This document shows positions 1 through 48,925 of a stretch of DNA of 48,925 nucleotides, one piece after another (positions within the stretch are counted from its first letter, which is position 1; each line of letters begins with the position of its first letter). Source of the stretch: a virus. Its lineage: Duplodnaviria > Heunggongvirae > Uroviricota > Caudoviricetes. The translations under genes and the position numbers were made by a program. The stretch lies in IMG/VR virus record IMGVR_UViG_3300045988_151382; one strand, given 5' to 3'. The notes beneath the pieces are model-generated. The model had not been told where the DNA came from, did no database searches, and saw only the letters and a program-made list of their open reading frames with translations.

Positions 1-836
1 AAAGCTGATTTATCCTGGATATCTGCACCGTTCTGATTTTTCGCCAGACGTGAATTTGCGTTGTCATTTGCTGCCTTGACCGCTTTTGGCGTTGCCGCCT
101 GCGTTTCAGACGTACTGTTAGTGGCACTACTGAGCTGAACTATCCCTTTTTGTGCCGTGGTGGCATTCTGGGCGGTATATTTTCCGTCAGCCAGGTCATA
201 TGCAGCCTTAACAGCCTTAGGCGTCGCTGCGAGCTTTTCAGACGTGCTATTGGTGGCATTACTGAGTTGAACAATGCCTTTTGATGTTAAAGTTGCATCA
301 GGATGATTACGTGATTGCTCATGTTTTACAATAGCTTGCTTAAGCCGCTTTGCTGAAACAGCCAGGGAATCATCTGTACCTGCATCAATTTCTTGTTCAT
401 TAGCAAATCTTGCTACTCCAACAACAGTTTCGGTTGCGGGAGGGTTAATAAACTCAACATCACCAAATGTAATGTTTTTAGTATCAAGATTTTTAATTGC
501 TATATCACTTGATATTAAAGCAATTGTAGAAGATGCTTTATTTATTATTACTTGTTCTTGCGAGTATACAGCAAACAATGTTCCTTTATTTGTATACAAA
601 CCTATTGTATGGACAACATACTCATCTTTACTATCATCCTTCGCAGTTACATGAATGGTATCAGGAGAAACGACTTTGCCTCCTATTGTGGTAAGTCGCT
701 TTATTTCATCTGTTATTTTTGTTTGTGTGGTTGATGTGGCATAATATCTACTACCTAAACCAACAGAAACGATCTCAACTTTATTTGTTCCAGTCTTGTT
801 GGCATTAACCAGCGCCTTACGCCCGGCGTCAGTCAT
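1..836 (-). CDS. Tail fiber protein, N-terminal portion; ORF starts at ATG 836 and continues across the circular junction into 46847..48836
   Basis: Hand translation from ATG at 836 gives MTDAGRKALVNANKTG... with two diverged copies of the tail-fiber repeat GIVQLS-ATNSTSE-AATPKAVKAA; no stop before position 1; frame matches the ORF ending at 46847. Confidence 0.75.
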   Translation of the reverse strand, partial: MTDAGRKALVNANKTGTNKVEIVSVGLGSRYYATSTTQTKITDEIKRLTTIGGKVVSPDTIHVTAKDDSKDEYVVHTIGLYTNKGTLFAVYSQEQVIINKASSTIALISSDIAIKNLDTKNITFGDVEFINPPATETVVGVARFANEQEIDAGTDDSLAVSAKRLKQAIVKHEQSRNHPDATLTSKGIVQLSNATNSTSEKLAATPKAVKAAYDLADGKYTAQNATTAQKGIVQLSSATNSTSETQAATPKAVKAANDNANSRLAKNQNGADIQDKSA

Positions 837-887
837 CGTAAATAATAATTTACTCACGCTTAATTCCTTGGATTAACAAATCGCAAA

Positions 888-3986: not shown

Positions 3987-4988
3987 TTAATACCCATTAA
4001 TTACTCTTCGGACATCAATCGAGGTGGTATAACCACTAGTCCCAATTGAATGCACAGCTTTCGATATAAGATATTTTCCAGAAAATGAACCGAATCCCTC
4101 CAGATTTATAGTTACACCAGCTACCAATCTGGTGTCTCCAACCAATACTAAAGATCCGGTATTTTGATATCTATTTTTAAGCCGCAAAGCAGCCTTTGCC
4201 TTACGTTTTGCTTCATCTAAATTAGCTACCAGTTTTCTTATCTTAAGATTCGACCCTTCTTCTACGGATGGATCTACCCAAGTATACGAAAGCGACTTTC
4301 TTTTTTTAGGTACGCGATATTTGCACGTGCAACTTTTATACAAATCTGTAGATTGTGTGCTAAAGCTATATCTGATTATCTCATCAATACCTAACGTAAG
4401 CGTAGCGATAGGATCTTTTTGCTCAAACATCTCTTGAGCAAATATTATTAATTGGCTATCAGTGACCTTTAACGACAACCCTTCATCCTGGCAAAGTCGA
4501 TGGAGAAATTTTAAATCGCTTTCCTCCATTTGATCTTCACGCGCATAATATGGATTACTATCACCATCAATAAGAAACAACAGTTCAAGGTTAGCTAATT
4601 TAGCTATAGAAGTTGCTATATCTTTAAGAGTTGTTTTTTCCCATGCATTACTTTTTAAATCACGTCTAATGCCTGATGAAACAGGAACAGAAACAGCAGT
4701 TACCTCAACCACAGAAGGTGGTCCAGAGCAAGTTATGCCATCTACCTGGAATTTCCCGCACTCAAGGACGATTTGATTTATAGGCTTAAAGCTCAAATCA
4801 ATAAAATCACCCTTTTTAGGTGTCCAGTCTCCAGACCATTTCCCATCATCATTTTTTAATATAATAGAAATATCATCGACCTGACCATCTTCATTATCTG
4901 TATAAGACATTGACAAAACATCAGGTGACATATGAGCGGTAATATTTACATTCTGATATATAACATCAAAAAGCGTTTTACGTAACAC
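3987..4988 (-). CDS. Tail protein D-like (late control D family)
   Basis: 333 aa ORF directly downstream of tape measure and X-like gene, as in P2 T-U/X-D order. Confidence 0.55.
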   Translation of the reverse strand: MLRKTLFDVIYQNVNITAHMSPDVLSMSYTDNEDGQVDDISIILKNDDGKWSGDWTPKKGDFIDLSFKPINQIVLECGKFQVDGITCSGPPSVVEVTAVSVPVSSGIRRDLKSNAWEKTTLKDIATSIAKLANLELLFLIDGDSNPYYAREDQMEESDLKFLHRLCQDEGLSLKVTDSQLIIFAQEMFEQKDPIATLTLGIDEIIRYSFSTQSTDLYKSCTCKYRVPKKRKSLSYTWVDPSVEEGSNLKIRKLVANLDEAKRKAKAALRLKNRYQNTGSLVLVGDTRLVAGVTINLEGFGSFSGKYLISKAVHSIGTSGYTTSIDVRRVINGY

Positions 4989-5196: not shown

Positions 5197-7981
5197 AACT
5201 TAATCTCCGTTGTTGGAACATATGAGCACTCAATTTCTTCTCAAAATCAGAATATCCCGCATCTAATGCTCTTTTAGCTGCCGCCTCAGTTTCCTTTGGT
5301 GAACCAGCCGGAAGATTGATTACAGGTGAATAGGTTATTCCACCAGTCACAGCGTTAACGTTCTGGCGAGGTCCAGAAGTCCCGGCGGCAGATATCCCGT
5401 GAGGTGATAAATTTGATTGCCCGAACTTGCTTGCTATTGCATTCTGTAAGCTGTTATTCCTGCTAACACCTGATGCCAGAGTAGTCATTATTGCACCACC
5501 TGACTTTGTTAGCTGTGAGAATGGACCTTTTTTCGCGTCAGAGAACGGTAAATACTCACGTACAGAAGAAAAAACGCCTTTCACTTCATTAATTAAAGCA
5601 TTTGCTTTTGATTTTATCCCAGTGATTAACGTCTCAATTATTTTTGCGCCTGACTCACTCCAGTTTATTCCAGATAAATAAGTCGTTACAGATTGGAATG
5701 CTCTTATAAAGAGTCCAACTGGTGAAAAACGCATAAAAACAGATACCAGTGTATCTATGATTTTCTTTCCTGTTTCGCTCCAGTTAATGCCAGAAAGGTA
5801 ATTTGTTGTAATTTTAAATGCTTTAATTAAGAACGGAAGCGGAGACATCCATTTAAAAGCACTAATTAATGTACTGTAAATTCTTACACCTGCCGAACTC
5901 CAGTTTATGTTGGAAAGATAATCCCATGCTTTACCAAACATAGATATAATCCATCCATTGAGGTCAAAGTTTAAGATAAAGTTTTTTATAGCCTCAAATG
6001 ATTTAACTGTATATTCCTTAACAGAAGGCCAAACTCTGACAGCATAATCTCTGATCTTATCCCAATTCTGATAGAGCAATATTCCTGCGGCAACCAGCGC
6101 AGATATAGCCATCTGAATCCACCCGAAGGGTGTTAGCTTTGTCGCTACAGATAAAGCCAGCATAGCTACCCTACACGCTATAACCACACTTTTCATGGTT
6201 AGAAACGCACCTGCCGCCATCACTATCTGAGACACAAAATTGGGGTTGTTAGCTACAAATTCACTAATTTTTGTAATCAGCGGAACCAAAACACTAAGCG
6301 CGGCATTCAAAGCAGGTTGCAAGGCCTGACCAAAACTTAATGATGCATTGCTAGCCTGAATACGTAATTGTTTCAATCGCTCCGCATTATCTTTCGTTAT
6401 GTTGGCAAAATCGCGGTCAATAACAGCACTTCCAGCTCCAAGAGATGTTGCTTTGATTCTCTGGTATTCCTTCCAGTTTTGAATCATCGGACGAACAAAG
6501 TTCTGAACCTGCATATCGCCAAATAGTTCACCAAGTAACTTCTGATCTCCGTTCTTAGTCATTTTCATGACAGAATGCATTGCAGCTTCGAATGGATTCT
6601 TCCCTTTTTTCTGCGCTGTTGTAACAATTTTATATAAATCTACACCGAAATTTTTCTTTGCTTTTTTTAGTGTTTCAGGGGAAAGTATTTTTGCCAAAAA
6701 GTTGTTCATATTATTAGCAGCCTCATCCGAAGTTGCAGCCCCCTTGCGAGCTATCTGCAAAGCTGCACCCATCGTCGCGGCTGCTTCTTTACCTCCCATT
6801 TTTAATGCCTGGAACTGAGCACCAAGCACAGGAAGATTTTTGGCCATATCTTTAAATTCAAAGTTCCCCTCTTTCCCTGCCTGAACCAGAATCCCCATTG
6901 CAGACTTCATTTGAGATGGATCAATCTTCAATGAGTCACTTAATGTAAATGATGCTTTCGAGACATCGAGGATATCAGAGCCAGTAGCTGTAGCTGTTCG
7001 CCCAATAGTTAGTAGATTCGCCTGAGCCTCTTTATAATCCTGCCCAGCAGCGACGAGAAAACCCTGAGCGGCCTGAATATCAGATGCAAACTGGTTGGTA
7101 GCCGTTCCGGTAACAAGCATCGCCTGCCCCATCGCCTGAACTTCTTCCGGCTTCATATCTGCCGTAAGACCAATCATTTTGTTTTCACGATTGAAATTTG
7201 CTGCATTGTTAGCAGCAGCAAATGCACCAGCCGCTACAGCACCAGTTTGTAATCCTGACCTTACAAGTTGACTCTTTGCCTCACCAAGATGCTCTCGCTT
7301 CAATTCACGCTGCCTTTCCAACGCGCGGTTTAACTCCTCCTGAGCACGTTTTACTGCAAGAACATTTTTCCGTGCTTCAGCCAACGCATTTTTATAGCTG
7401 TTAATTTTATCAATACGTTGTTTTTCTAATGCCCGGTTAAGTTCCTCCTGCTGTTTTTTCACTTGCTGAACATTTGCTCTGGCTAAAGCCAAAGCCGTTC
7501 TGTAGCGGTTAACCTGCTCAACGCTACGGGCCTGAGCCTCACGATTACGATCAATGCTGGCTTTAAGCTCTTTCTCTCTTGAGGCCAAAGCTCTGGCAGA
7601 TGTATCAGCTCCCTGATAGGCAGACTTTAAAGCGGCCAGTTCTTCACGCTGAGAACGTAGTGATGCTCGTAAATTCGATGAATGTGTTTTTGCCTTCTCA
7701 AAGTCACGAAGCATCGCTCTGGTTGGATTGGCCGTGTTTTTTATTTGCTTCTGTAACTCTTCAACGCGAGCGGCAGCTTTATGATATTCGAGGGCAGTCT
7801 GTCCAACCTTTACTTTTACAGATTGTAGCTTTTGAATTTCCCCATGTTCTTTCGTTAATCCAGCAAGCTCGGCATTTAATTTAGCAACAGCCTGATTAGC
7901 TGTAGTAAAACTTTTGGGGAGAGAGGCGGCAACTTTGCCGCCAATTTCAAAAGCCAGCTTAAAGTTCTTATTGCTGGCCAT
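5189..7981 (-). CDS. Tail tape measure protein
   Basis: 930 aa ORF, N-terminal coiled-coil rich in A/K/E/Q, multiple hydrophobic segments, C-terminal region; position after chaperone pair. Confidence 0.8.
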   Translation of the reverse strand: MASNKNFKLAFEIGGKVAASLPKSFTTANQAVAKLNAELAGLTKEHGEIQKLQSVKVKVGQTALEYHKAAARVEELQKQIKNTANPTRAMLRDFEKAKTHSSNLRASLRSQREELAALKSAYQGADTSARALASREKELKASIDRNREAQARSVEQVNRYRTALALARANVQQVKKQQEELNRALEKQRIDKINSYKNALAEARKNVLAVKRAQEELNRALERQRELKREHLGEAKSQLVRSGLQTGAVAAGAFAAANNAANFNRENKMIGLTADMKPEEVQAMGQAMLVTGTATNQFASDIQAAQGFLVAAGQDYKEAQANLLTIGRTATATGSDILDVSKASFTLSDSLKIDPSQMKSAMGILVQAGKEGNFEFKDMAKNLPVLGAQFQALKMGGKEAAATMGAALQIARKGAATSDEAANNMNNFLAKILSPETLKKAKKNFGVDLYKIVTTAQKKGKNPFEAAMHSVMKMTKNGDQKLLGELFGDMQVQNFVRPMIQNWKEYQRIKATSLGAGSAVIDRDFANITKDNAERLKQLRIQASNASLSFGQALQPALNAALSVLVPLITKISEFVANNPNFVSQIVMAAGAFLTMKSVVIACRVAMLALSVATKLTPFGWIQMAISALVAAGILLYQNWDKIRDYAVRVWPSVKEYTVKSFEAIKNFILNFDLNGWIISMFGKAWDYLSNINWSSAGVRIYSTLISAFKWMSPLPFLIKAFKITTNYLSGINWSETGKKIIDTLVSVFMRFSPVGLFIRAFQSVTTYLSGINWSESGAKIIETLITGIKSKANALINEVKGVFSSVREYLPFSDAKKGPFSQLTKSGGAIMTTLASGVSRNNSLQNAIASKFGQSNLSPHGISAAGTSGPRQNVNAVTGGITYSPVINLPAGSPKETEAAAKRALDAGYSDFEKKLSAHMFQQRRLSFG

Positions 7982-7986
7982 TAGTA

Positions 7987-8169
7987 TTAATCCTCATTAA
8001 ACACGTCAATCCATGCGACGATTCGCCTCAACCGAAGCGAAAGCCAGTAGGATATAGGTGTTGATTGAGATGATTGAGATAGAGAACTCGCGGCCCTCAT
8101 TATTTGCTTATCAATAGGTTTTTGCTCATCAAAACCTACGAGAGCAAAAAATTCTGTACCTTTTGACAA
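7987..8169 (-). CDS. Tail assembly chaperone frameshift extension (E-prime-like)
   Basis: 60 aa ORF overlapping the 3-prime end of 8136..8417 in the -1 frame; slippery heptamer present in the overlap. Confidence 0.5.
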   Translation of the reverse strand: MSKGTEFFALVGFDEQKPIDKQIMRAASSLSQSSQSTPISYWLSLRLRRIVAWIDVFNED

Positions 8170-8417
8170 ACTTTAACAAAGTCTTTCGCTGGTAATCCAT
8201 TCAGATACTCTATTGGACGACCAATACAGCGAGCAGCCAAGGCTGCATGGACTTTATTATCAAGTGATGTTTGAACTGAAACATGCCCTTGAGATTGCAG
8301 TAAGTCCGATACCTCTAAAATATCACTGCCTTTTAGGTTGTCTAAATCAAGGTTGAGTTCAGTCACTGGCTCAAAGTCTTCAAAACGATATTCTTTACTT
8401 AATTTAACGGTTTCCAT
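8136..8417 (-). CDS. Tail assembly chaperone (gpE-like)
   Basis: 93 aa acidic ORF between tube and tape measure genes; ends with codons AAT TTT TTG CTC TCG TAG. Confidence 0.6.
   Translation of the reverse strand: METVKLSKEYRFEDFEPVTELNLDLDNLKGSDILEVSDLLQSQGHVSVQTSLDNKVHAALAARCIGRPIEYLNGLPAKDFVKVCQKVQNFLLS
8143..8151 (-). other. Candidate programmed -1 ribosomal frameshift site (TTTTTTG slippery heptamer)
   Basis: Minus-strand sequence GAATTTTTTGCTC at the end of the chaperone ORF, same heptamer class as P2 E/E-prime. Confidence 0.5.
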
Positions 8418-8426
8418 TTTTTCACC

Positions 8427-8948
8427 TTATAAACCTAAATCATCACGAACAGTTTTTAATATATCTTCGCCATCAAAGATACAAATAAAGTTCAACTTAT
8501 CAATTTCTAAGACTTCTTTCCCATCAATAAATAATTTGATATAGAGAACTTCGAATTCATTTTCTGAATCAGTGGCCTTTGCTACCTGTAGCGAACCTAA
8601 ATCCAGTTTTTTAGGGTTTAGCTTCATTGAAGCCCGAATAGGAACCGTTTTATATTTTCCTGTTCCTGCATCATAAACCTGCTGGCTACCGCGAAAATCT
8701 ACCTGATGCGATGAGGATAGAAATAATTTTGTACCAGCAGAGGTCAGAGTTCGCCATTTAAGAGAGACAGTCATTGGTTTGAAATGCCCCAGCGTTCCGC
8801 TCTCAAGCTCTCCAGCGATACCTGCACCACTAACAGTTTCTGTCATCATCTCAATTGATGGCAGCTTTGCGTCAGCAACACCGATAATACGGTTTCCTTC
8901 ACCGTATACTGTAAAGTTAATAAGTCTCTCAGGAATTTGATTGCTCAA
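8427..8948 (-). CDS. Tail tube protein
   Basis: 173 aa ORF directly downstream of sheath gene; size matches contractile-tail tube proteins. Confidence 0.6.
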   Translation of the reverse strand: MSNQIPERLINFTVYGEGNRIIGVADAKLPSIEMMTETVSGAGIAGELESGTLGHFKPMTVSLKWRTLTSAGTKLFLSSSHQVDFRGSQQVYDAGTGKYKTVPIRASMKLNPKKLDLGSLQVAKATDSENEFEVLYIKLFIDGKEVLEIDKLNFICIFDGEDILKTVRDDLGL

Positions 8949-8964
8949 AGCAACCTCCTATTAT

Positions 8965-10428
8965 TTATTCAGAAAACAAGTTCAGCAGATAATCAGGATT
9001 ATATTCCATGACGAACTCTATATCTCTGGCAGGTGAGAATGGTGTCATTTTCACATGGAATTTAACAATCCCGTCCATCAATGACGTAATCGTGTTTTCA
9101 GACTGATCAAAGGTAACAACACCACCTGCAATATCCTGATTACCAGTGAGGCCGTTAAGCCAAATATTCGCACTAGTAACAATCGATTCAATTAATCGAC
9201 GGTTTGCAGGATTGTCTATTTTTGACCAATGCGAAAGAATTAACGTATTACCCACCCAGTTAAACATACGTCGGCAAACACGAAATGCGTCTTTGGGGTC
9301 TGTAGATGTTGGATAAATAGCATTACGGTTTCCCCATGATTTCCAACCATCAAAATTAAGGCTTGTTACAATCCCCTGTCCATTTAAGTAGTTTGCCTGG
9401 CTAATGTTAAGCCATACCTCACTGCCATCTTTACGTACAGCACCGTCCATCTGTAGTTTTATATTTGACGGAGAACGTGATGGAATATCACCATACTGAC
9501 TATCCAGCAAGCATGTTGCTGCCGCTAAATGGGTTGAGTGATGGTAAATATTGTCACCAAGTTTCACCATCGGCCAGCACACTGTCTGGTTAGCTGCCAT
9601 ATGATTATTGTTCTGCTTCCATTCAGGAACAGCAGAATAATCACTGATAGTAGATTTATCAGTCGGCGCATCGGTGATAGCTTCTGCTTTGAACAATTCA
9701 CTAATCAGCGCAGCTTTAGCCGCCATTAGCTGGCCAACTTCACTATCAGAACTAAATCCAGGCGCAATCACTTGTCCTGGAACTAGTTTGAAGCGGGGAT
9801 AAACATCCGACAGTAACTCAAGCCCCGTATTCGCTTTAGTGTTGGAATCCACGCCACCAATAATATCGTTTTTAGTTACAGCCCCGGGATCAAGATACGT
9901 ATAACTAACCTTAAGAGTGGCGTCTTTTTCAGTAACTTTTCCTCCGCTAATAGCGGTAATGACCGTATAGCCATTATCATCCAGCGCCAGTACATAATCT
10001 GTATCAACCGTTAACCCTGGAGAATCACCATCTGCTTTTTTCACAACAACAGATTTATATAAGACACCATCGTTAGAGAGCGTACCTTTCCCGCCAGAAA
10101 GTTTTACTACCTCATCAGTTACGTCTTTCTTATGCTTTGCTGGATCAAGCACATTGATAAATACAACTGGCGCAACACCATATATTCCAAATGCGACTTT
10201 AATTACTTCGCTTAAAGTATATTTCTCGAAGTTTGTGCTATATCCTATTTTAGATACGGCCTCTGCGTATGTATAAGCAATGATAGGTTTATTTACCGCT
10301 GAGGCTGGATCTTCTAACTGATTAACAGGAGCTGTACCAAATGCGACAATCAACCCAGCACTAACTTGTACTGGAGGAGTTATAGATGTAGCCAGCTCAG
10401 ATATATAAATACCGTGGCGATATCCCAT
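8965..10428 (-). CDS. Tail sheath protein
   Basis: 487 aa ORF upstream of tube; size and order typical of contractile tails. Confidence 0.65.
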   Translation of the reverse strand: MGYRHGIYISELATSITPPVQVSAGLIVAFGTAPVNQLEDPASAVNKPIIAYTYAEAVSKIGYSTNFEKYTLSEVIKVAFGIYGVAPVVFINVLDPAKHKKDVTDEVVKLSGGKGTLSNDGVLYKSVVVKKADGDSPGLTVDTDYVLALDDNGYTVITAISGGKVTEKDATLKVSYTYLDPGAVTKNDIIGGVDSNTKANTGLELLSDVYPRFKLVPGQVIAPGFSSDSEVGQLMAAKAALISELFKAEAITDAPTDKSTISDYSAVPEWKQNNNHMAANQTVCWPMVKLGDNIYHHSTHLAAATCLLDSQYGDIPSRSPSNIKLQMDGAVRKDGSEVWLNISQANYLNGQGIVTSLNFDGWKSWGNRNAIYPTSTDPKDAFRVCRRMFNWVGNTLILSHWSKIDNPANRRLIESIVTSANIWLNGLTGNQDIAGGVVTFDQSENTITSLMDGIVKFHVKMTPFSPARDIEFVMEYNPDYLLNLFSE

Positions 10429-10718
10429 TATTTAATCTCCATGATAGAAGAAGAAACTCTAGAGTACATTACATACTCGACACTGGTTTTATCAGAAAGT
10501 CTTTTTTCTGCATCTGAAAAATCACTGGTTGCCACAAACAAACACTTTGCACCAGGAATATGTGATATTAATTTTTCACACTCTGGAGATAAGCCATTCT
10601 TAAATAGTTTATGCTTCAAAATTGAGAGTTGAGGGATTGTTGGCCCTATATATACAAATGTTTGAGCAACATCTTCCTTCTTTTCTATATCTTCTTTACT
10701 ACTTTTCTTATTAGCCAT
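10428..10718 (-). CDS. Hypothetical protein (head-tail region)
   Basis: 96 aa ORF, AT-rich codon usage. Confidence 0.35.
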   Translation of the reverse strand: MANKKSSKEDIEKKEDVAQTFVYIGPTIPQLSILKHKLFKNGLSPECEKLISHIPGAKCLFVATSDFSDAEKRLSDKTSVEYVMYSRVSSSIMEIK

Positions 10719-11204
10719 TTAGATAAACTCCTGAGACTGAATATTCTGAGGCTTTAATACTAGCCACGTTCCAGTTGCTTCCGTTATCCAATATGGATAT
10801 GGTTGATCATCAAACATTCGCCATCTGATATCACCCTGAAAGAGAAATTTCTCTTCAAGTAAAGGCTTCTCCTGAAAATGAAACATCATCCTTTCAAGAA
10901 GAGCCATTACCCATTCATATCCAGTATGGTCCTCACAAAAACCACCTAGAAGAAACTTAACCTTAACTTCATCCGTTTCAGGCTGCATTCCTCCTTCCGT
11001 GGGCCTGATAATCACATGAGGAAATTCTGGCGGTTTATCTGGAGATGGTTGTGATTTAGGAGGCAAGTACCCTTTAAATATTGTTGGAACAAACAATTTA
11101 ATATCGCTGTCTGTTTCATCATAAGGAGGCCCCTGCACTAATAAATCATGGAAAACCTCATGTTCCAACCGATTTTTTATTGCATCTATCAAAAGATTAA
11201 TCAA
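10719..11204 (-). CDS. Putative head-tail joining/tail completion protein
   Basis: 161 aa ORF between head and sheath genes. Confidence 0.35.
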   Translation of the reverse strand: MINLLIDAIKNRLEHEVFHDLLVQGPPYDETDSDIKLFVPTIFKGYLPPKSQPSPDKPPEFPHVIIRPTEGGMQPETDEVKVKFLLGGFCEDHTGYEWVMALLERMMFHFQEKPLLEEKFLFQGDIRWRMFDDQPYPYWITEATGTWLVLKPQNIQSQEFI

Positions 11205-44255: not shown

Positions 44256-45104
44256 TTAATGTTGGAGTGATTTCCAGGTCTTTCTTAGCCTGTTATAACG
44301 CTGCTCAACGAGGGATCGTAAATATGCAAGGTCAGCACCTGGATACATGCCATCAGCAAATTCCTGGCTAACCTCTCTAGTGATTTGATGACGAAGTTCG
44401 GCCTCTCCCTTTTCCCGGACAAGACGCGCAGCTCTCTCCGCTGCTTTCTGTTTTGCCTTTATCTCTCTGGCCGTCTTCCTCTGGCGCCATACATTCTCCA
44501 TCTGCTCCTGAATAACAATACGCTTATAATCAGCCTCCGTTATCGCTTTTTTAAGCCGTTCGCTATTCTTCGCATTGAAGTAATTAAGTTTCTGGCTAAC
44601 CGCACGTCTCCATGCTTGTTCAGTAATACCAACGGTTTCCAGCAGTTGATCACGAATCTCTATTTTCGCTGGCCAATACTGTTTATTCACCCGATCCCAG
44701 CGACGTTCATAATCAATAAAACCTAACGCTTTCAGTTGCGACAACGCCCTTGTACAGCGCGTTATAGACTTGTTCCCAGCTTCGGATACGGTAGACAGGC
44801 CGCAAAAATCAGCCAACGCCTCAGCACTAGCCAGAACCCGCTTAGAAATGATGTTTACATGGTGCAAAATCGCAGCGATCACAGCATTAATCGCCCGACG
44901 ACGATGCTCGTTTATCCGGCGCTTCCGCCCTGACGGTTGATTAACGTAGAACGCAACCTCACACGTAAGATCACGACCATTAATGCGCTGTAAAGCATCA
45001 GATAACACCAGCGGCAGCTTGTGCGTATGGTGCTTTGGAGGCTGGAACTCCGGCGACAAATTACAAACGTAAGCGGAACGTAGAGACGGCATTGGTCTAT
45101 CCAT
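44256..45104 (-). CDS. repA: Replication initiator RepA, IncFII RepA1-like
   Basis: Segment CGLSTVSEAGNKSITRCTRALSQLKALGFIDYE resembles recalled IncFII RepA1 block; start uncertain (ORF open to 45236, internal ATG at 45104). Confidence 0.65.
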   Translation of the reverse strand: MDRPMPSLRSAYVCNLSPEFQPPKHHTHKLPLVLSDALQRINGRDLTCEVAFYVNQPSGRKRRINEHRRRAINAVIAAILHHVNIISKRVLASAEALADFCGLSTVSEAGNKSITRCTRALSQLKALGFIDYERRWDRVNKQYWPAKIEIRDQLLETVGITEQAWRRAVSQKLNYFNAKNSERLKKAITEADYKRIVIQEQMENVWRQRKTAREIKAKQKAAERAARLVREKGEAELRHQITREVSQEFADGMYPGADLAYLRSLVEQRYNRLRKTWKSLQH

Positions 45105-45136
45105 ATGTTCGCTCTTGCGTCCACGGAAAACCAACG

Positions 45137-45229
45137 TATAATGGGAGTTGTCGAGGCGCCCATGGATTGTTGTTGTTGGTTTTCCGTGGATGTCGCAAGA
45201 AGCCCGCAGATTTATCTGCGGGCTTTTTG
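45137..45229 (+). ncRNA. CopA-like antisense RNA candidate opposite the repA leader
   Basis: TTGCGT-N16-TATAAT promoter, 15-bp inverted repeat CCACGGAAAACCAAC/GTTGGTTTTCCGTGG, then terminator GCCCGCAGA-TTTA-TCTGCGGGC-TTTTT. Confidence 0.5.
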
Positions 45230-45702
45230 TTTCCATATCTGGTCAGTTTCCAACCAGACACCCACAATCATAACCACGTTACGTGGTTTTAAGAGAACTC
45301 TACCACAACACTTTCGGTCATGCACGAAGTCTCTCACTGATCGAACGATAATCCACCAGTAAAAGGATCTAAATTGGATCTCGTTTTGCGAGCATCATAC
45401 TACTGGCCTAACTCCAGTCAATGATTCCCAGCCAGAAACCTGCGGTAAACTCATCGTTCAGCAATATGCTGTCCGGCTTCAAAGATAAGGTGACATCATC
45501 CCTTAACAGCGCGGCCAGTTCAGTTAAAGGGCTGTTCTGATTTAATGCTGGCCACTCATACCTGGTAATAAGTGGTCAGTCTTAACACTCACCATTTGAT
45601 TGCACCCGTGTTGACGATTTGTTACTGGATATCAGACACGCTGGATAGCCAGTAGAAACATACCATTAAAATTATTACAATAATTGGTCACATGATTATC
45701 TT

Positions 45703-46266
45703 ATGCTGAATAATAAAGATATGAATATTAATGAACTTAAAGACTGTATTCACTATGAAGTAATCGGTAGCGAGCGTCCTTTCTCCTGGCGAAAGGCAAT
45801 TGTTCGCGCAATAAAACATAGAAGGGTTCGTTATTTATTTTGGTGGCGCATAGCCAAATACCTTTTTGATAAAGGCGGATACTGTCGGAAGATTGCGGGA
45901 AAAATAGAACGTTTCATTCTTGATAAATATAATGTAACAGTCCCTTTAACTGTAAATATAGGGAAAGGCTTTGATATTTCTTATCTCAACAGTGTTGTTA
46001 TCGGTCACAAAGTAACAATCGGTGAAAATTGTTCAATTAAGCCCGGAGTAACTATTGGACTTCGCGGGGAATTTAATGATATGGATATTGTTATAGGGCA
46101 TAATGTGACCATTGGTTGTAATGCCACCATTCTTGGTGGCAAAGTGCGTATAGGAAACAATGTCACAATAGGTGCTCATGCATTGGTATTGCATGATATT
46201 CCTGATGATTCAACATTCATCACTAAATTTCAGTCTGAAGTTATCTGCTCGTCCTCCCGAACATAA
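45703..46266 (+). CDS. Hexapeptide-repeat (left-handed beta-helix) acyltransferase
   Basis: 187 aa; tandem hexapeptide repeats [21 protein letters not shown]...[34 protein letters not shown]; AT-rich codon usage. Confidence 0.7.
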
Positions 46267-46847
46267 CCCTGATTCATCAGCTCTGGCCATACGATATCCG
46301 GAGCTGTACTGGTGTCAATTCTACTCACTAATACTCTGTATTTTCTCCAGGAATCCAGTTGTGAATTTTCCTCGTTTGTTGCTATTTCAAGATTAACTGC
46401 ATCCTGCAGAATTGCGATGTTATCTGTTGCTTCCTGGATCAACCTTGCCTTTTTCTCTTCCGCTTCCCGTATCCGAAACAGTTTTTCTGCTTCCTCATCA
46501 TTCACCCAGGATACGCCGTCCCACTTCTGATACTCCCCTGCTGGCGACAACCAGGTGACATTCTCTGGTAGCGGTCCGAGTTCAGAAATAAACAATGCGT
46601 CCCCCGACGCCACGTCATAGACCGTTTTACCACGATGGTCTTCAACAATATTCCACGATTCATTTTCACTGTTAAAAACTGCCACAAAGCCAGCAGGAAT
46701 TTCCGGTGGGGCGATATCTGTAGAATTAGCTGGCAGCCCTGTATGAGGTGGAATATATGCGTCACCTTCACCAATAAACTCATTAGTTCCGGCCAGCAGG
46801 TTATAAATTTTTACGGTACGTGATTGTTCACTCATTCTGAATGCCAT
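46230..46847 (-). CDS. Tail fiber assembly protein (Tfa)
   Basis: 205 aa; C-terminal [15 protein letters not shown]...WPE motif matches recalled Tfa consensus; immediately downstream of tail fiber gene. Confidence 0.8.
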
Positions 46848-48836
46848 TATGCAAGCCTCACAATATAATTAAATGCGATGTTTTTAACGGTGTTTTCCGC
46901 GTTACCAGCAGCGTTAACGGTGATGGTGTGTCCATGTGAACCAATCTTAACAGAGTGCGTATGAGCGCCAATACCAACAGTGTGTGCATGTGCCCCAGCA
47001 CTTGTAGCGGTACCTGATACTGAGTGGGTATGTGCGCCAGAAGAAGGCACAGTTCCATTCCCCACCACCGTGCCACTTGATGAACCATCCAGCCAGTCGA
47101 AATTCATACCGCCACTGTTTGGTCTCCTTAATGGAACGGTATGAGTATGTGCGCCAGCACTATTTGCAGTACCAGATACATTGTGGGTATGTGCACCTGT
47201 GTTATTCGTTGATTTAGTACCGTAATCAAACGACGATGTGGTTTTCGTACCCAAATCCGTACTGGATGCGCTGGCACTGTGGGTGTGCGATTTAATGCCA
47301 TCCTGTTCCTGAGACAATACGGCCCGACCACTGGCGGGTTTGCCCTTGATTGTCCAGCCGCGCATATCTGGAATAACACCAGAAGGATAGGCAATAGCCA
47401 GTTTCGGATATGCTGCCTTATCAAACGTCTGCCCCTGCATGATTGCATAACCTGCAGGTGGCGTATCTGATGGCCACGGCAGCGGAACACCTGGCGGAAA
47501 CGCTTCAATATTTGCCGAGCCGTCAAATTTTACGCCGTTAATTGTCCTTGCCGTTTTCAGCTTTGTTGCTGTAGCAGCATTGCCGGATAGTTCGCCTGAA
47601 AGACCACCGCTGAATGTCTGTTTCGCCATCCATGTCTGAGCTTCGTCGATAATTGGCACACGTCTTGTCGTGATCGTGCGGCTTCCCGGATTTCCTGAAA
47701 TGCGAACCATAAAAAAGCGGTAGTTGGCTTTACTTACAGTGCTGCGCCATACATGCATTGAGCGTCCCGAACCAGAATCATCACTCGGACCGACTGAGAT
47801 GTTTATCAGGTTGCCATCAATGACGCCCCAGTCCATACCGTCGGGAATATTGGTCATGTTATCAAGCCGAACGGTTATCAGACTGCCCGGCACAAAATCG
47901 TAGGTCTGCCAGTCCAGGCTGGTGAGCTTTGCCACAGCACCGCCGATACCCAGATTCAGGGGAAGTGAATACGAGGTGTAGACTTCCCGCCATTCGCTCC
48001 ATGAGCTGCCGGTAAAGACGCGCTCAAAGGTGCGGCCTTTAAGGGTTGTACCTGTTCCGGCAGTTGTATAACGCTGCCATACATTAACACCATCAAACCG
48101 CCTCAACACTTCCAGAATGCCGAGTACAGTCACGCCGTTTCCGTCCAGTACTGGACCGTTGGTCGCTTTACCTGTAACGCTGTAAATACCTGGTGAGGTT
48201 ACATCATTCAAATCACCTTCGTAATAACGACTCTCTGACTGATGACCGACTCTTAACCACGGTTCCCACTGCGGATTTGATGCATCCCAGCTTGCCGCAA
48301 GACAGCGGACATACATATTTCCACGGCGAGTGGTATAACGTTGCGTTCTTCCATAATTTCCGCCTTCGAGGATCTCAAGCATCCCCTGAGCAAAGCCGCC
48401 TTCCTCTGGATAATTGCGTTCATATGAAGCTATAGCTGAGCTACTGTTACGCCATAAACCAAGATGCTCAGCGGCTCCAAGCGTATTCAGGTCTATAGTC
48501 GTACTCAAAGGGCGGGTAGCAGATTGAGTGTGACGCCATACGCCCCACGGACCATCAGTGCCATTCCACTTATTGGCGAGTTTACGCATGTATACATTGC
48601 CGTCTCTCGTGGTAAAGCGTTGCGTACCTGCAAAATGGCCGGCAGCAAAAACCTCAAGCACACCGACAGCATTATCTTCCGGGAAATTTTTCTCCAGTGT
48701 TGCGTTGGTGGATGTTGCTTTAGACCAGATACCTGAATAAGCCTTAACAGGACCAAACGTATTCAGATCAGCATCAAGCGGCATTTCGCCATTGTTTTTC
48801 ATAAACGTCAGGCTGGTAACGCCAACATTGTCCAGA
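46847..48836 (-). CDS. Tail fiber protein, C-terminal portion (continuation of 1..836 across the circular junction)
   Basis: ORF track 46847..48802 is the internal-Met part; frame stays open upstream through 48836 and joins position 1; C-terminus has repeated GAHTH(N/S/T)V His-rich motifs. Confidence 0.75.
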
Positions 48837-48925
48837 AAAGCTGATTTATCCTGGATATCTGCACCGTTCTGATTTTTCGCCAGACGTGAATTTGCGTTGT
48901 CATTTGCTGCCTTGACCGCTTTTGG
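48837..48925. repeat. Terminal overlap: exact copy of window positions 1..89
   Basis: 89 identical bases at both window ends, coding frame preserved across the join. Confidence 0.85.

Follow-up and report, generated by a model that had tools for sequence, protein, structure and literature searches.

The tail fibre gene that is split between the two ends of the window (the whole stretch of 48,925 nt analysed here) in all likelihood encodes the receptor-binding fibre of a myovirus-type E. coli phage-plasmid, a protein that is presumably a homotrimer, as its solved relatives are, and that appears to be built from exchangeable modules. Residues 1 to about 180 would form the lineage's own baseplate-attachment domain, and two Phage_fiber_2 units (aa 186-212 and 230-256) would form the first segment of the shaft. 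Residues 228-712 would make up a P2-like shaft with three pyocin-knob domains, and past a second conserved motif the chain would end in a tip of the T4 gp37 / lambda Stf type, with a collar, a needle and a hypervariable head. Seven HxH motifs per chain would give seven six-histidine iron sites in the trimer, the head would contact the receptor, and the Tfa protein encoded downstream would fold the tip. The unit sequence is conserved across otherwise unrelated fibres (those of P2, lambda, Mu and P1-like plasmids), and this conservation suggests that the units mark the site at which distal parts are swapped. The features of the locus are listed in Table 1.

Table 1. Features of the fibre locus, and parts of the fibre gene with their closest relatives
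Feature	Position (nt of the window unless stated)	Strand	Residues (aa)	Details
Tail fibre gene, 5' part	1-857	-	1-278	Start at ATG 836 or GTG 857; PHROG 295 'tail fiber protein', E 5e-221; continues at 48836
Tail fibre gene, 3' part	46847-48836	-	279-941 + stop	Contiguous in pEC488-4 and phage vB_EcoM-613R2
Predicted baseplate-attachment domain, N-terminal	447-836	-	1-130	Specific to the phage-plasmid family; 90-100% DNA identity in 59 family plasmids
Possible third, strongly diverged unit	333-440	-	133-168	PATETVVGVARFANEQEIDAGTDDSLAVSAKRLKQA; z = 5.8 against unit 1
Phage_fiber_2 unit 1	201-281	-	186-212	KGIVQLSNATNSTSEKLAATPKAVKAA; DNA repeat arm 195-282
Phage_fiber_2 unit 2	69-149	-	230-256	KGIVQLSSATNSTSETQAATPKAVKAA; DNA repeat arm 63-150
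Three tandem pyocin-knob-like domains	47948-48787	-	296-575	Each about 90 aa; inside the segment resembling P2-like gpH
Second junction motif (…FDGS)	47516-47584	-	697-719	P2-like homology ends here; gp37-type tip starts just after it
Collar domain (gp37 domain D10)	47348-47491	-	728-775	PF07484, E 3e-10; alignment to 2XGF; PMC6957217
Needle region, seven HxH motifs	46922-47293	-	794-917	
Hypervariable head (putative receptor contact)	47039-47137	-	846-878	
Tail fibre assembly chaperone Tfa	46230-46847	-	205 aa in full	Pfam Caudo_TAP, E 1e-39; directly downstream of the fibre gene
Mosaic part, N-terminal	1-773 of the gene		1-258	Closest: fibre of Yersinia phage vB_YpM_41 and of other family plasmids, 91% DNA identity
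Mosaic part, middle	683-2135 of the gene		228-712	Closest: P2-like Peduovirus gpH, NC_070906.1, 93% DNA identity
Mosaic part, C-terminal	2194-2826 of the gene		732-941	Closest: Stf of lambdoid phage Turner, 79% DNA identity

Replicon layout and the fibre locus

Bases 1-89 of the window are an exact copy of bases 48837-48925. This 89-nt match of the ends indicates that the window represents a circularly permuted replicon of 48,836 bp that was cut within the tail fibre gene, and because the cut lies inside the gene, the full-length fibre never appears among the window's own ORFs. When positions 836 to 1 of the minus strand are joined to positions 48836 to 46847, a single open frame of 941 aa runs from the ATG at 836. 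The original prediction had assigned an N-terminal and a C-terminal set of repeats to the same protein, which is true only by way of this circular permutation. Translation from the alternative GTG at 857 would yield 948 aa. The GTG is preceded by an AAGGA sequence at a distance of 7 nt, and both RefSeq (PGAP) and the record for vB_YpM_41 begin the gene there; the ATG at 836 lies without an obvious ribosome-binding site.

The E. coli plasmid pEC488-4 (49,150 bp) carries the joined gene uninterrupted and with 100% identity, and two partial phage genomes, vB_EcoM-613R2 and vB_EcoM-473R2, have an identical gene. Besides the fibre, pEC488-4 has a full structural module of a myovirus together with repA, genes of the parA/parB type and a RelE/ParE toxin. 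Plasmid genes and a myovirus module on one element, together with the identical fibre in phage genomes, argue that this element is a phage-plasmid. Judged by comparison with pEC488-4, the window replicon is a myovirus-type E. coli phage-plasmid as well, with RepA (a repA-like ORF at 44256-45236, minus strand), ParA/ParB-type genes and a RelE/ParE toxin adjoining a complete myovirus module. The family comprises at least 59 related plasmids in PLSDB, many of them from clinical isolates; these 59 plasmids measure 32-94 kb (nearly all 46-52 kb) and share the gpI gene and the fibre N-terminus with the window. The pSLy3 group of phage-plasmids was considered as a home for the replicon and rejected, as pSLy3 falls in the SSU5 supergroup and relatives of SSU5 are placed among the Siphoviridae.

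Around the fibre gene, Pfam searches identified Baseplate_J and Tail_P2_I genes (gpJ- and gpI-like) upstream and a Caudo_TAP chaperone gene downstream, and PHROGs agreed with these family calls. An NCBIfam scan of the fibre protein matched zero families. At 1421-2401 in pEC488-4, which is otherwise near-identical to the window plasmid, an IS5 element adjoins a shortened tail gene of the late-control-D family (gpD-like), and as a phage pEC488-4 is therefore probably defective. The equivalent region of the window holds an ORF at 3987-4988.

The Phage_fiber_2 units and the first junction

The N-terminal attachment domain is AT-rich, like the adjacent baseplate genes. The GC content of the part encoding aa 1-183 is 37%, near that of the gpI and gpJ genes (38-39%), and its GC3 is 21%, compared with 47% in the units and 41-46% in the segments that follow. 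Within positions 1-900 there is one direct repeat, an 88-nt sequence at 63-150 that recurs at 195-282 with 80% identity and a spacing of 132 nt. The two repeated units that had been predicted in the fibre N-terminus were thus recovered essentially where they had been placed, at 69-149 and 201-281. As proteins the units are identical at 24 of 27 residues, and the best 27-aa self-match in 200 protein shuffles was 14. In a 32-aa comparison of the units, different codons encode 13 of the 25 identical residues, which suggests that the units are old and have been held by selection on the protein and that they did not arise by duplication during assembly.

Both units belong to Pfam family PF03406, Phage_fiber_2 (138.7 bits against a cut-off of 22, E 4.3e-41), which is matched in two stretches, the second of which (aa 226-267) covers the full 42-position profile. 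That they sit in a tail fibre is indicated by the match to PHROG 295, by the baseplate J/I and Tfa genes on either side, and by the tail fibre annotation of identical records. As conserved motifs, these repeats are well known from the tail fibres of enterobacterial phages. Little is known of the structure of the Phage_fiber_2 unit (PMC3368898), for which conflicting models exist (PMC8078820), and the Mu cryo-EM paper modelled the fibre at its N-terminus only.

Residues 133-168 may be a third unit, which we offer only as a lead. Their similarity to unit 1 is listed in Table 1; the similarity to unit 2 is not significant. The same residues resemble a repeat, ATE..G.A..A...E...GT....AV.P..L, that T4 gp34 shares with other short-tail-fibre chains (PDB 9X3R, 9F4B, 9ZD7).

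In its homologies the fibre is a three-part mosaic of a family N-terminus, a P2-like middle and a lambdoid tip with its Tfa (Table 1). The family and P2-like homologies overlap only across unit 2, with the latter beginning at about position 138-154 of the window. Because unit 2 is common to both parental lineages, we place the crossover within it, and because the two lineages are 84-90% identical across the unit, the crossover is resolved only to an interval of about 90 nt. The exact donor was not found; the best donors match the DNA of the middle at 93% identity and that of the tip at 79%.

To map breakpoints, the first 900 bases of the locus were compared with all plasmids by megablast and the 59 family members were tallied. 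Twenty of the 59 carry the same fibre as the window and show no break. Homology stops at window positions 63-74, the distal edge of unit 2, in 32 plasmids and at positions 207-220, the last codons of unit 1, in the other seven. In each of the 39 family plasmids whose fibre is of another type, the break therefore lies at the 3' edge of a unit, within intervals of 12-14 nt. Another 163 plasmids gave matches of lower identity; the single one listed (H210) matches across the units only.

The original prediction regarded repeats of this kind as recombination substrates for the exchange of host range, and comparison with related fibres supports the units as such substrates at which distal modules would be swapped. 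This would fit the mosaic, the 39 breaks at units, the variation from one to four units and the position of the hypervariable head between histidine boxes, from which we infer recombination. Alignment to related fibres, which had been suggested as a check, supports an exchange of the C-terminal module: other E. coli proteins combine the head variant of the window, at 91-96% identity over the tip, with four or more different shafts, and in the window a lambdoid tip sits on a P2-like shaft.

It is possible, if doubtful, that the units are purely structural repeats of the shaft, and that junctions cluster at them because chimeras joined at domain boundaries fold, with the DNA similarity of the units playing no part. 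Exact in-register DNA matches between units are short, as this account would expect: 10 nt between the two units of the window and 8-27 nt overall, with the maximum of 27 nt to units of other fibres, so that classical RecA recombination would be inefficient there. Conservation of the units at the protein level, with different codons at about half of the shared residues, points the same way, as does the second junction, which likewise lies at a conserved protein motif and an apparent domain boundary. What speaks for a role of the unit DNA is the confinement of every breakpoint to such narrow intervals at the 3' edges, the overlap of the parental homologies across unit 2, a hallmark of exchange inside sequence common to both parents, and published T-even crosses, in which exchanges were placed at or near conserved fibre motifs (PMC3157838). 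The T4 g37 tip was reported to be of lambda origin in the same work (PMC3157838). With matches this short, the data do not separate homology-initiated exchange from selection for domain-border chimeras, and the structural account is partly compatible with the exchange of modules at conserved motifs, which we prefer.

A local origin of the two units within the gene, by slippage or unequal crossing-over and with no exchange between phages, is unlikely. The tandem arrangement and constant 132-nt period would suit it, as would the unit number, which is 1, 2, 3 or 4 among fibres that share the same N-terminal domain, and the near-identity of adjacent units in the fibre of pGMI14-004_3. However, unit 2 is closer in DNA to units of other fibres (87% identity to that of pMB9880_3 and 85% to that of phage Turner) than to unit 1 of the window (79%), and the whole gene beyond unit 2 derives from another lineage. 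Both observations favour modular exchange between phages.

Beyond the units, at the same locus, several sister elements (YpM_41, pO145_122715_2, K. aerogenes pC161661-2 and pGMI14-004_3) carry an invertible Sv/U versus Sv'/U' segment and a DNA invertase. In vB_YpM_41 this is a fibre segment of the Mu G / P1 C type at 6044-11140, with an invertase of the hin/pin type. The fibre of pMB9880_3 is encoded by two genes, namely a 792-aa fibre, a small ORF and a second tail protein of 346 aa, followed by Tfa. In a tblastn search with the invertase, Sv' and U' of YpM_41, the window was matched only in the C-terminal part of its one Tfa, and remnants of an invertible segment were not found in the window. 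One could speculate, with no great confidence, that the Phage_fiber_2 array is a universal splice site at which one baseplate adaptor is switched among invertase-switched dual ends, a two-gene fibre and a fixed iron-needle tip of the lambda/T4 type on P2-type knobs. The number of units (1-4) would then record crossovers, and the knobs and the tip would be two receptor-binding regions.

Shaft, tip and chaperone

Beyond the units, the middle segment contains the three knob-like domains, which make up another, third group of repeats inside the protein and were not part of the original prediction. An AlphaFold2 model of aa 285-575 (pLDDT 76) contained three beta-rich domains, and its top Foldseek match was the R1 pyocin fibre (6CL5_A, E 9.8e-7, probability 1.00, 22% identity). 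TM-scores against 6CL5 were low (0.25-0.31), which can be attributed to the arbitrary relative orientation of domains in a single-chain model. Homologues of the segment are named 'pyocin knob domain-containing protein' by NCBI. The motif of the second junction (aa 697-719) recurs in donor-type fibres, sometimes twice; a duplicated form is seen in some Stf proteins of lambdoid phages (P0009).

The last 233 residues of the fibre (aa 709-941) matched residues 16-242 of the T4 gp37 tip chain 2XGF in a phmmer search of the PDB (E 2.8e-82). Identity over the tip was 62.1% to T4 gp37 (tblastn) and 73-79% to lambdoid Stf proteins. All seven HxH motifs align with HxH motifs of T4 gp37 in 2XGF, which bears out the earlier assignment of the tip to the T4 gp37 class; this direct homology supports placing it in a T4 gp37 / lambda Stf class. 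The 14-aa Phage_fiber repeat of Pfam (PF03335) is also present in the fibre. The C-terminal repeats, of which at least five GAHTH-like motifs had been reported, are real; the number of HxH motifs is however seven, and the first of them lies just outside the range that had been quoted. Shuffled versions of the protein contained 0.53 HxH motifs on average and four at most.

In the T4 needle, histidines of three chains coordinate seven iron atoms (PMC6957217). By extrapolation from that structure, the window fibre would form a trimer whose tip would bind iron at octahedral six-histidine sites. A single-chain AlphaFold2 model of aa 709-941, built with an alignment of 34 sequences, was uninformative (mean pLDDT 46, pTM 0.17), as would be expected for one chain of an intertwined, metal-bound trimer. 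In place of this structure prediction, which had been proposed as a check, we rely on the sequence homology to 2XGF.

Histidine clusters can bind Ni or Zn on protein surfaces, and the histidine-rich C-terminus might in principle be a metal-scavenging or adhesive surface tract and not a buried structural site. We consider this very improbable: nothing specific favours it, every HxH motif aligns with one that coordinates needle iron in the crystal structure of T4 gp37, and the 14 histidines are all invariant or at least 90% conserved among 34 homologues while the head that they flank varies. That the repeats are an assembly artefact tied to the duplicated window ends is next to impossible: the ends do overlap by 89 nt and the gene does span them, but only a portion of unit 2 falls within the overlap, 20% of bases differ between the units, and independent assemblies refute it, since phage vB_EcoM-613R2 and no fewer than 20 finished plasmids have this gene in one piece, with 99.5-100% identity.

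A direct repeat of 63 nt in the needle (46976-47038 and 47135-47197, 78% identical) encodes paired histidine boxes, GAHTH.VSGTA.SAGAH.HTV, and the two copies bracket the hypervariable head. Among 33 homologues, conservation of the head is 22-34%, compared with 85-100% in its flanks, and its length is variable. Residues 933-953 at the tip of T4 gp37 contact LPS and OmpC (PMC6957217). The segment of the window fibre aligned to these residues falls within the head and is without similarity to T4, so that its receptor probably differs from that of T4.

Tfa co-varies with the tip. Over its whole length, the Tfa of the window has 80.5% identity to the one encoded after Stf in lambdoid phage Turner, and its similarity to P2 G and to the Mu-type U of YpM_41 is restricted to the last 65 aa. 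This difference suggests that tip and chaperone arrived as one cassette.

Likeness to known systems and practical value

No part of this fibre lies outside families that have long been known, and deposited records of identical genes, with annotation, exist already. No new mechanism is proposed, as motif-mediated fibre mosaicism and an iron-binding HxH needle were previously described for P2, lambda, Mu, P1 and T4. Our analysis adds the exact anatomy of the fibre, the count of seven histidine motifs, the homology to the T4 tip and quantitative breakpoints within one phage-plasmid family. The value of these data is practical rather than conceptual, in that they provide a natural example of sites at which a fibre can be cut and rejoined, namely the 3' edge of a Phage_fiber_2 unit and the position just after the …FDGS motif. 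Such sites would be useful for engineering particles based on P2, pyocins or phage-plasmids with new host ranges. The family itself is widespread, many members coming from clinical E. coli, and combines at least three alternative fibre loci with one backbone.

The tip is homologous to that of T4 gp37 over the entire crystallised fragment, and the C-terminal strand is identical. The stretch aligned to gp37 residues 933-953 is unrelated and 2 aa longer. The T4 protein is a distal half-fibre of 1026 aa that is served by the chaperones gp38 and gp57A, whereas the window fibre has 941 aa, sits on a P2-type baseplate and has a lambda-type Tfa.

Lambda and lambdoid phages, with their Stf and Tfa, are the closest source of both the tip and the chaperone of the window, and lambdoid Stf proteins also carry a Phage_fiber_2 unit. 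In vB_EcoM-613R2 the gene identical to the window fibre is annotated as 'side tail fiber protein'. Lambdoid Stf proteins, however, have their own N-terminal domain, regions rich in Ala and Ser, and a gp37_C-type domain before the collar. In the window fibre, by contrast, the tip is joined, right after the …FDGS motif, to a shaft of the P2 type, and the tail is contractile.

The P2-like (Peduovirus) gpH locus has the same gene order as the window, gpJ-gpI-fibre-chaperone, but the N-terminal attachment domain of the window fibre is unrelated in DNA to gpH, and the C-terminal receptor-binding part and the chaperone have been replaced in the window. The R-type pyocin fibre (6CL5) has two knobs, compared with three in the window fibre. 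Mu gpS (5YVQ, 8JU3) matches the window fibre at aa 206-286, the Phage_fiber_2 units being common to both. The invertase and alternative fibre end of the Mu S/U, P1 S/U and Min-type loci are absent from the window and present in sister phage-plasmids.

Downstream of the fibre locus, a gene for a hexapeptide-repeat (LbH) acetyltransferase lies on the plus strand at 45703-46266, convergent with tfa and overlapping it by 37 nt. It holds the position that the inverted fibre end and the DNA invertase occupy in sister plasmids, and may be a putative lysogenic-conversion gene that modifies the cell surface.
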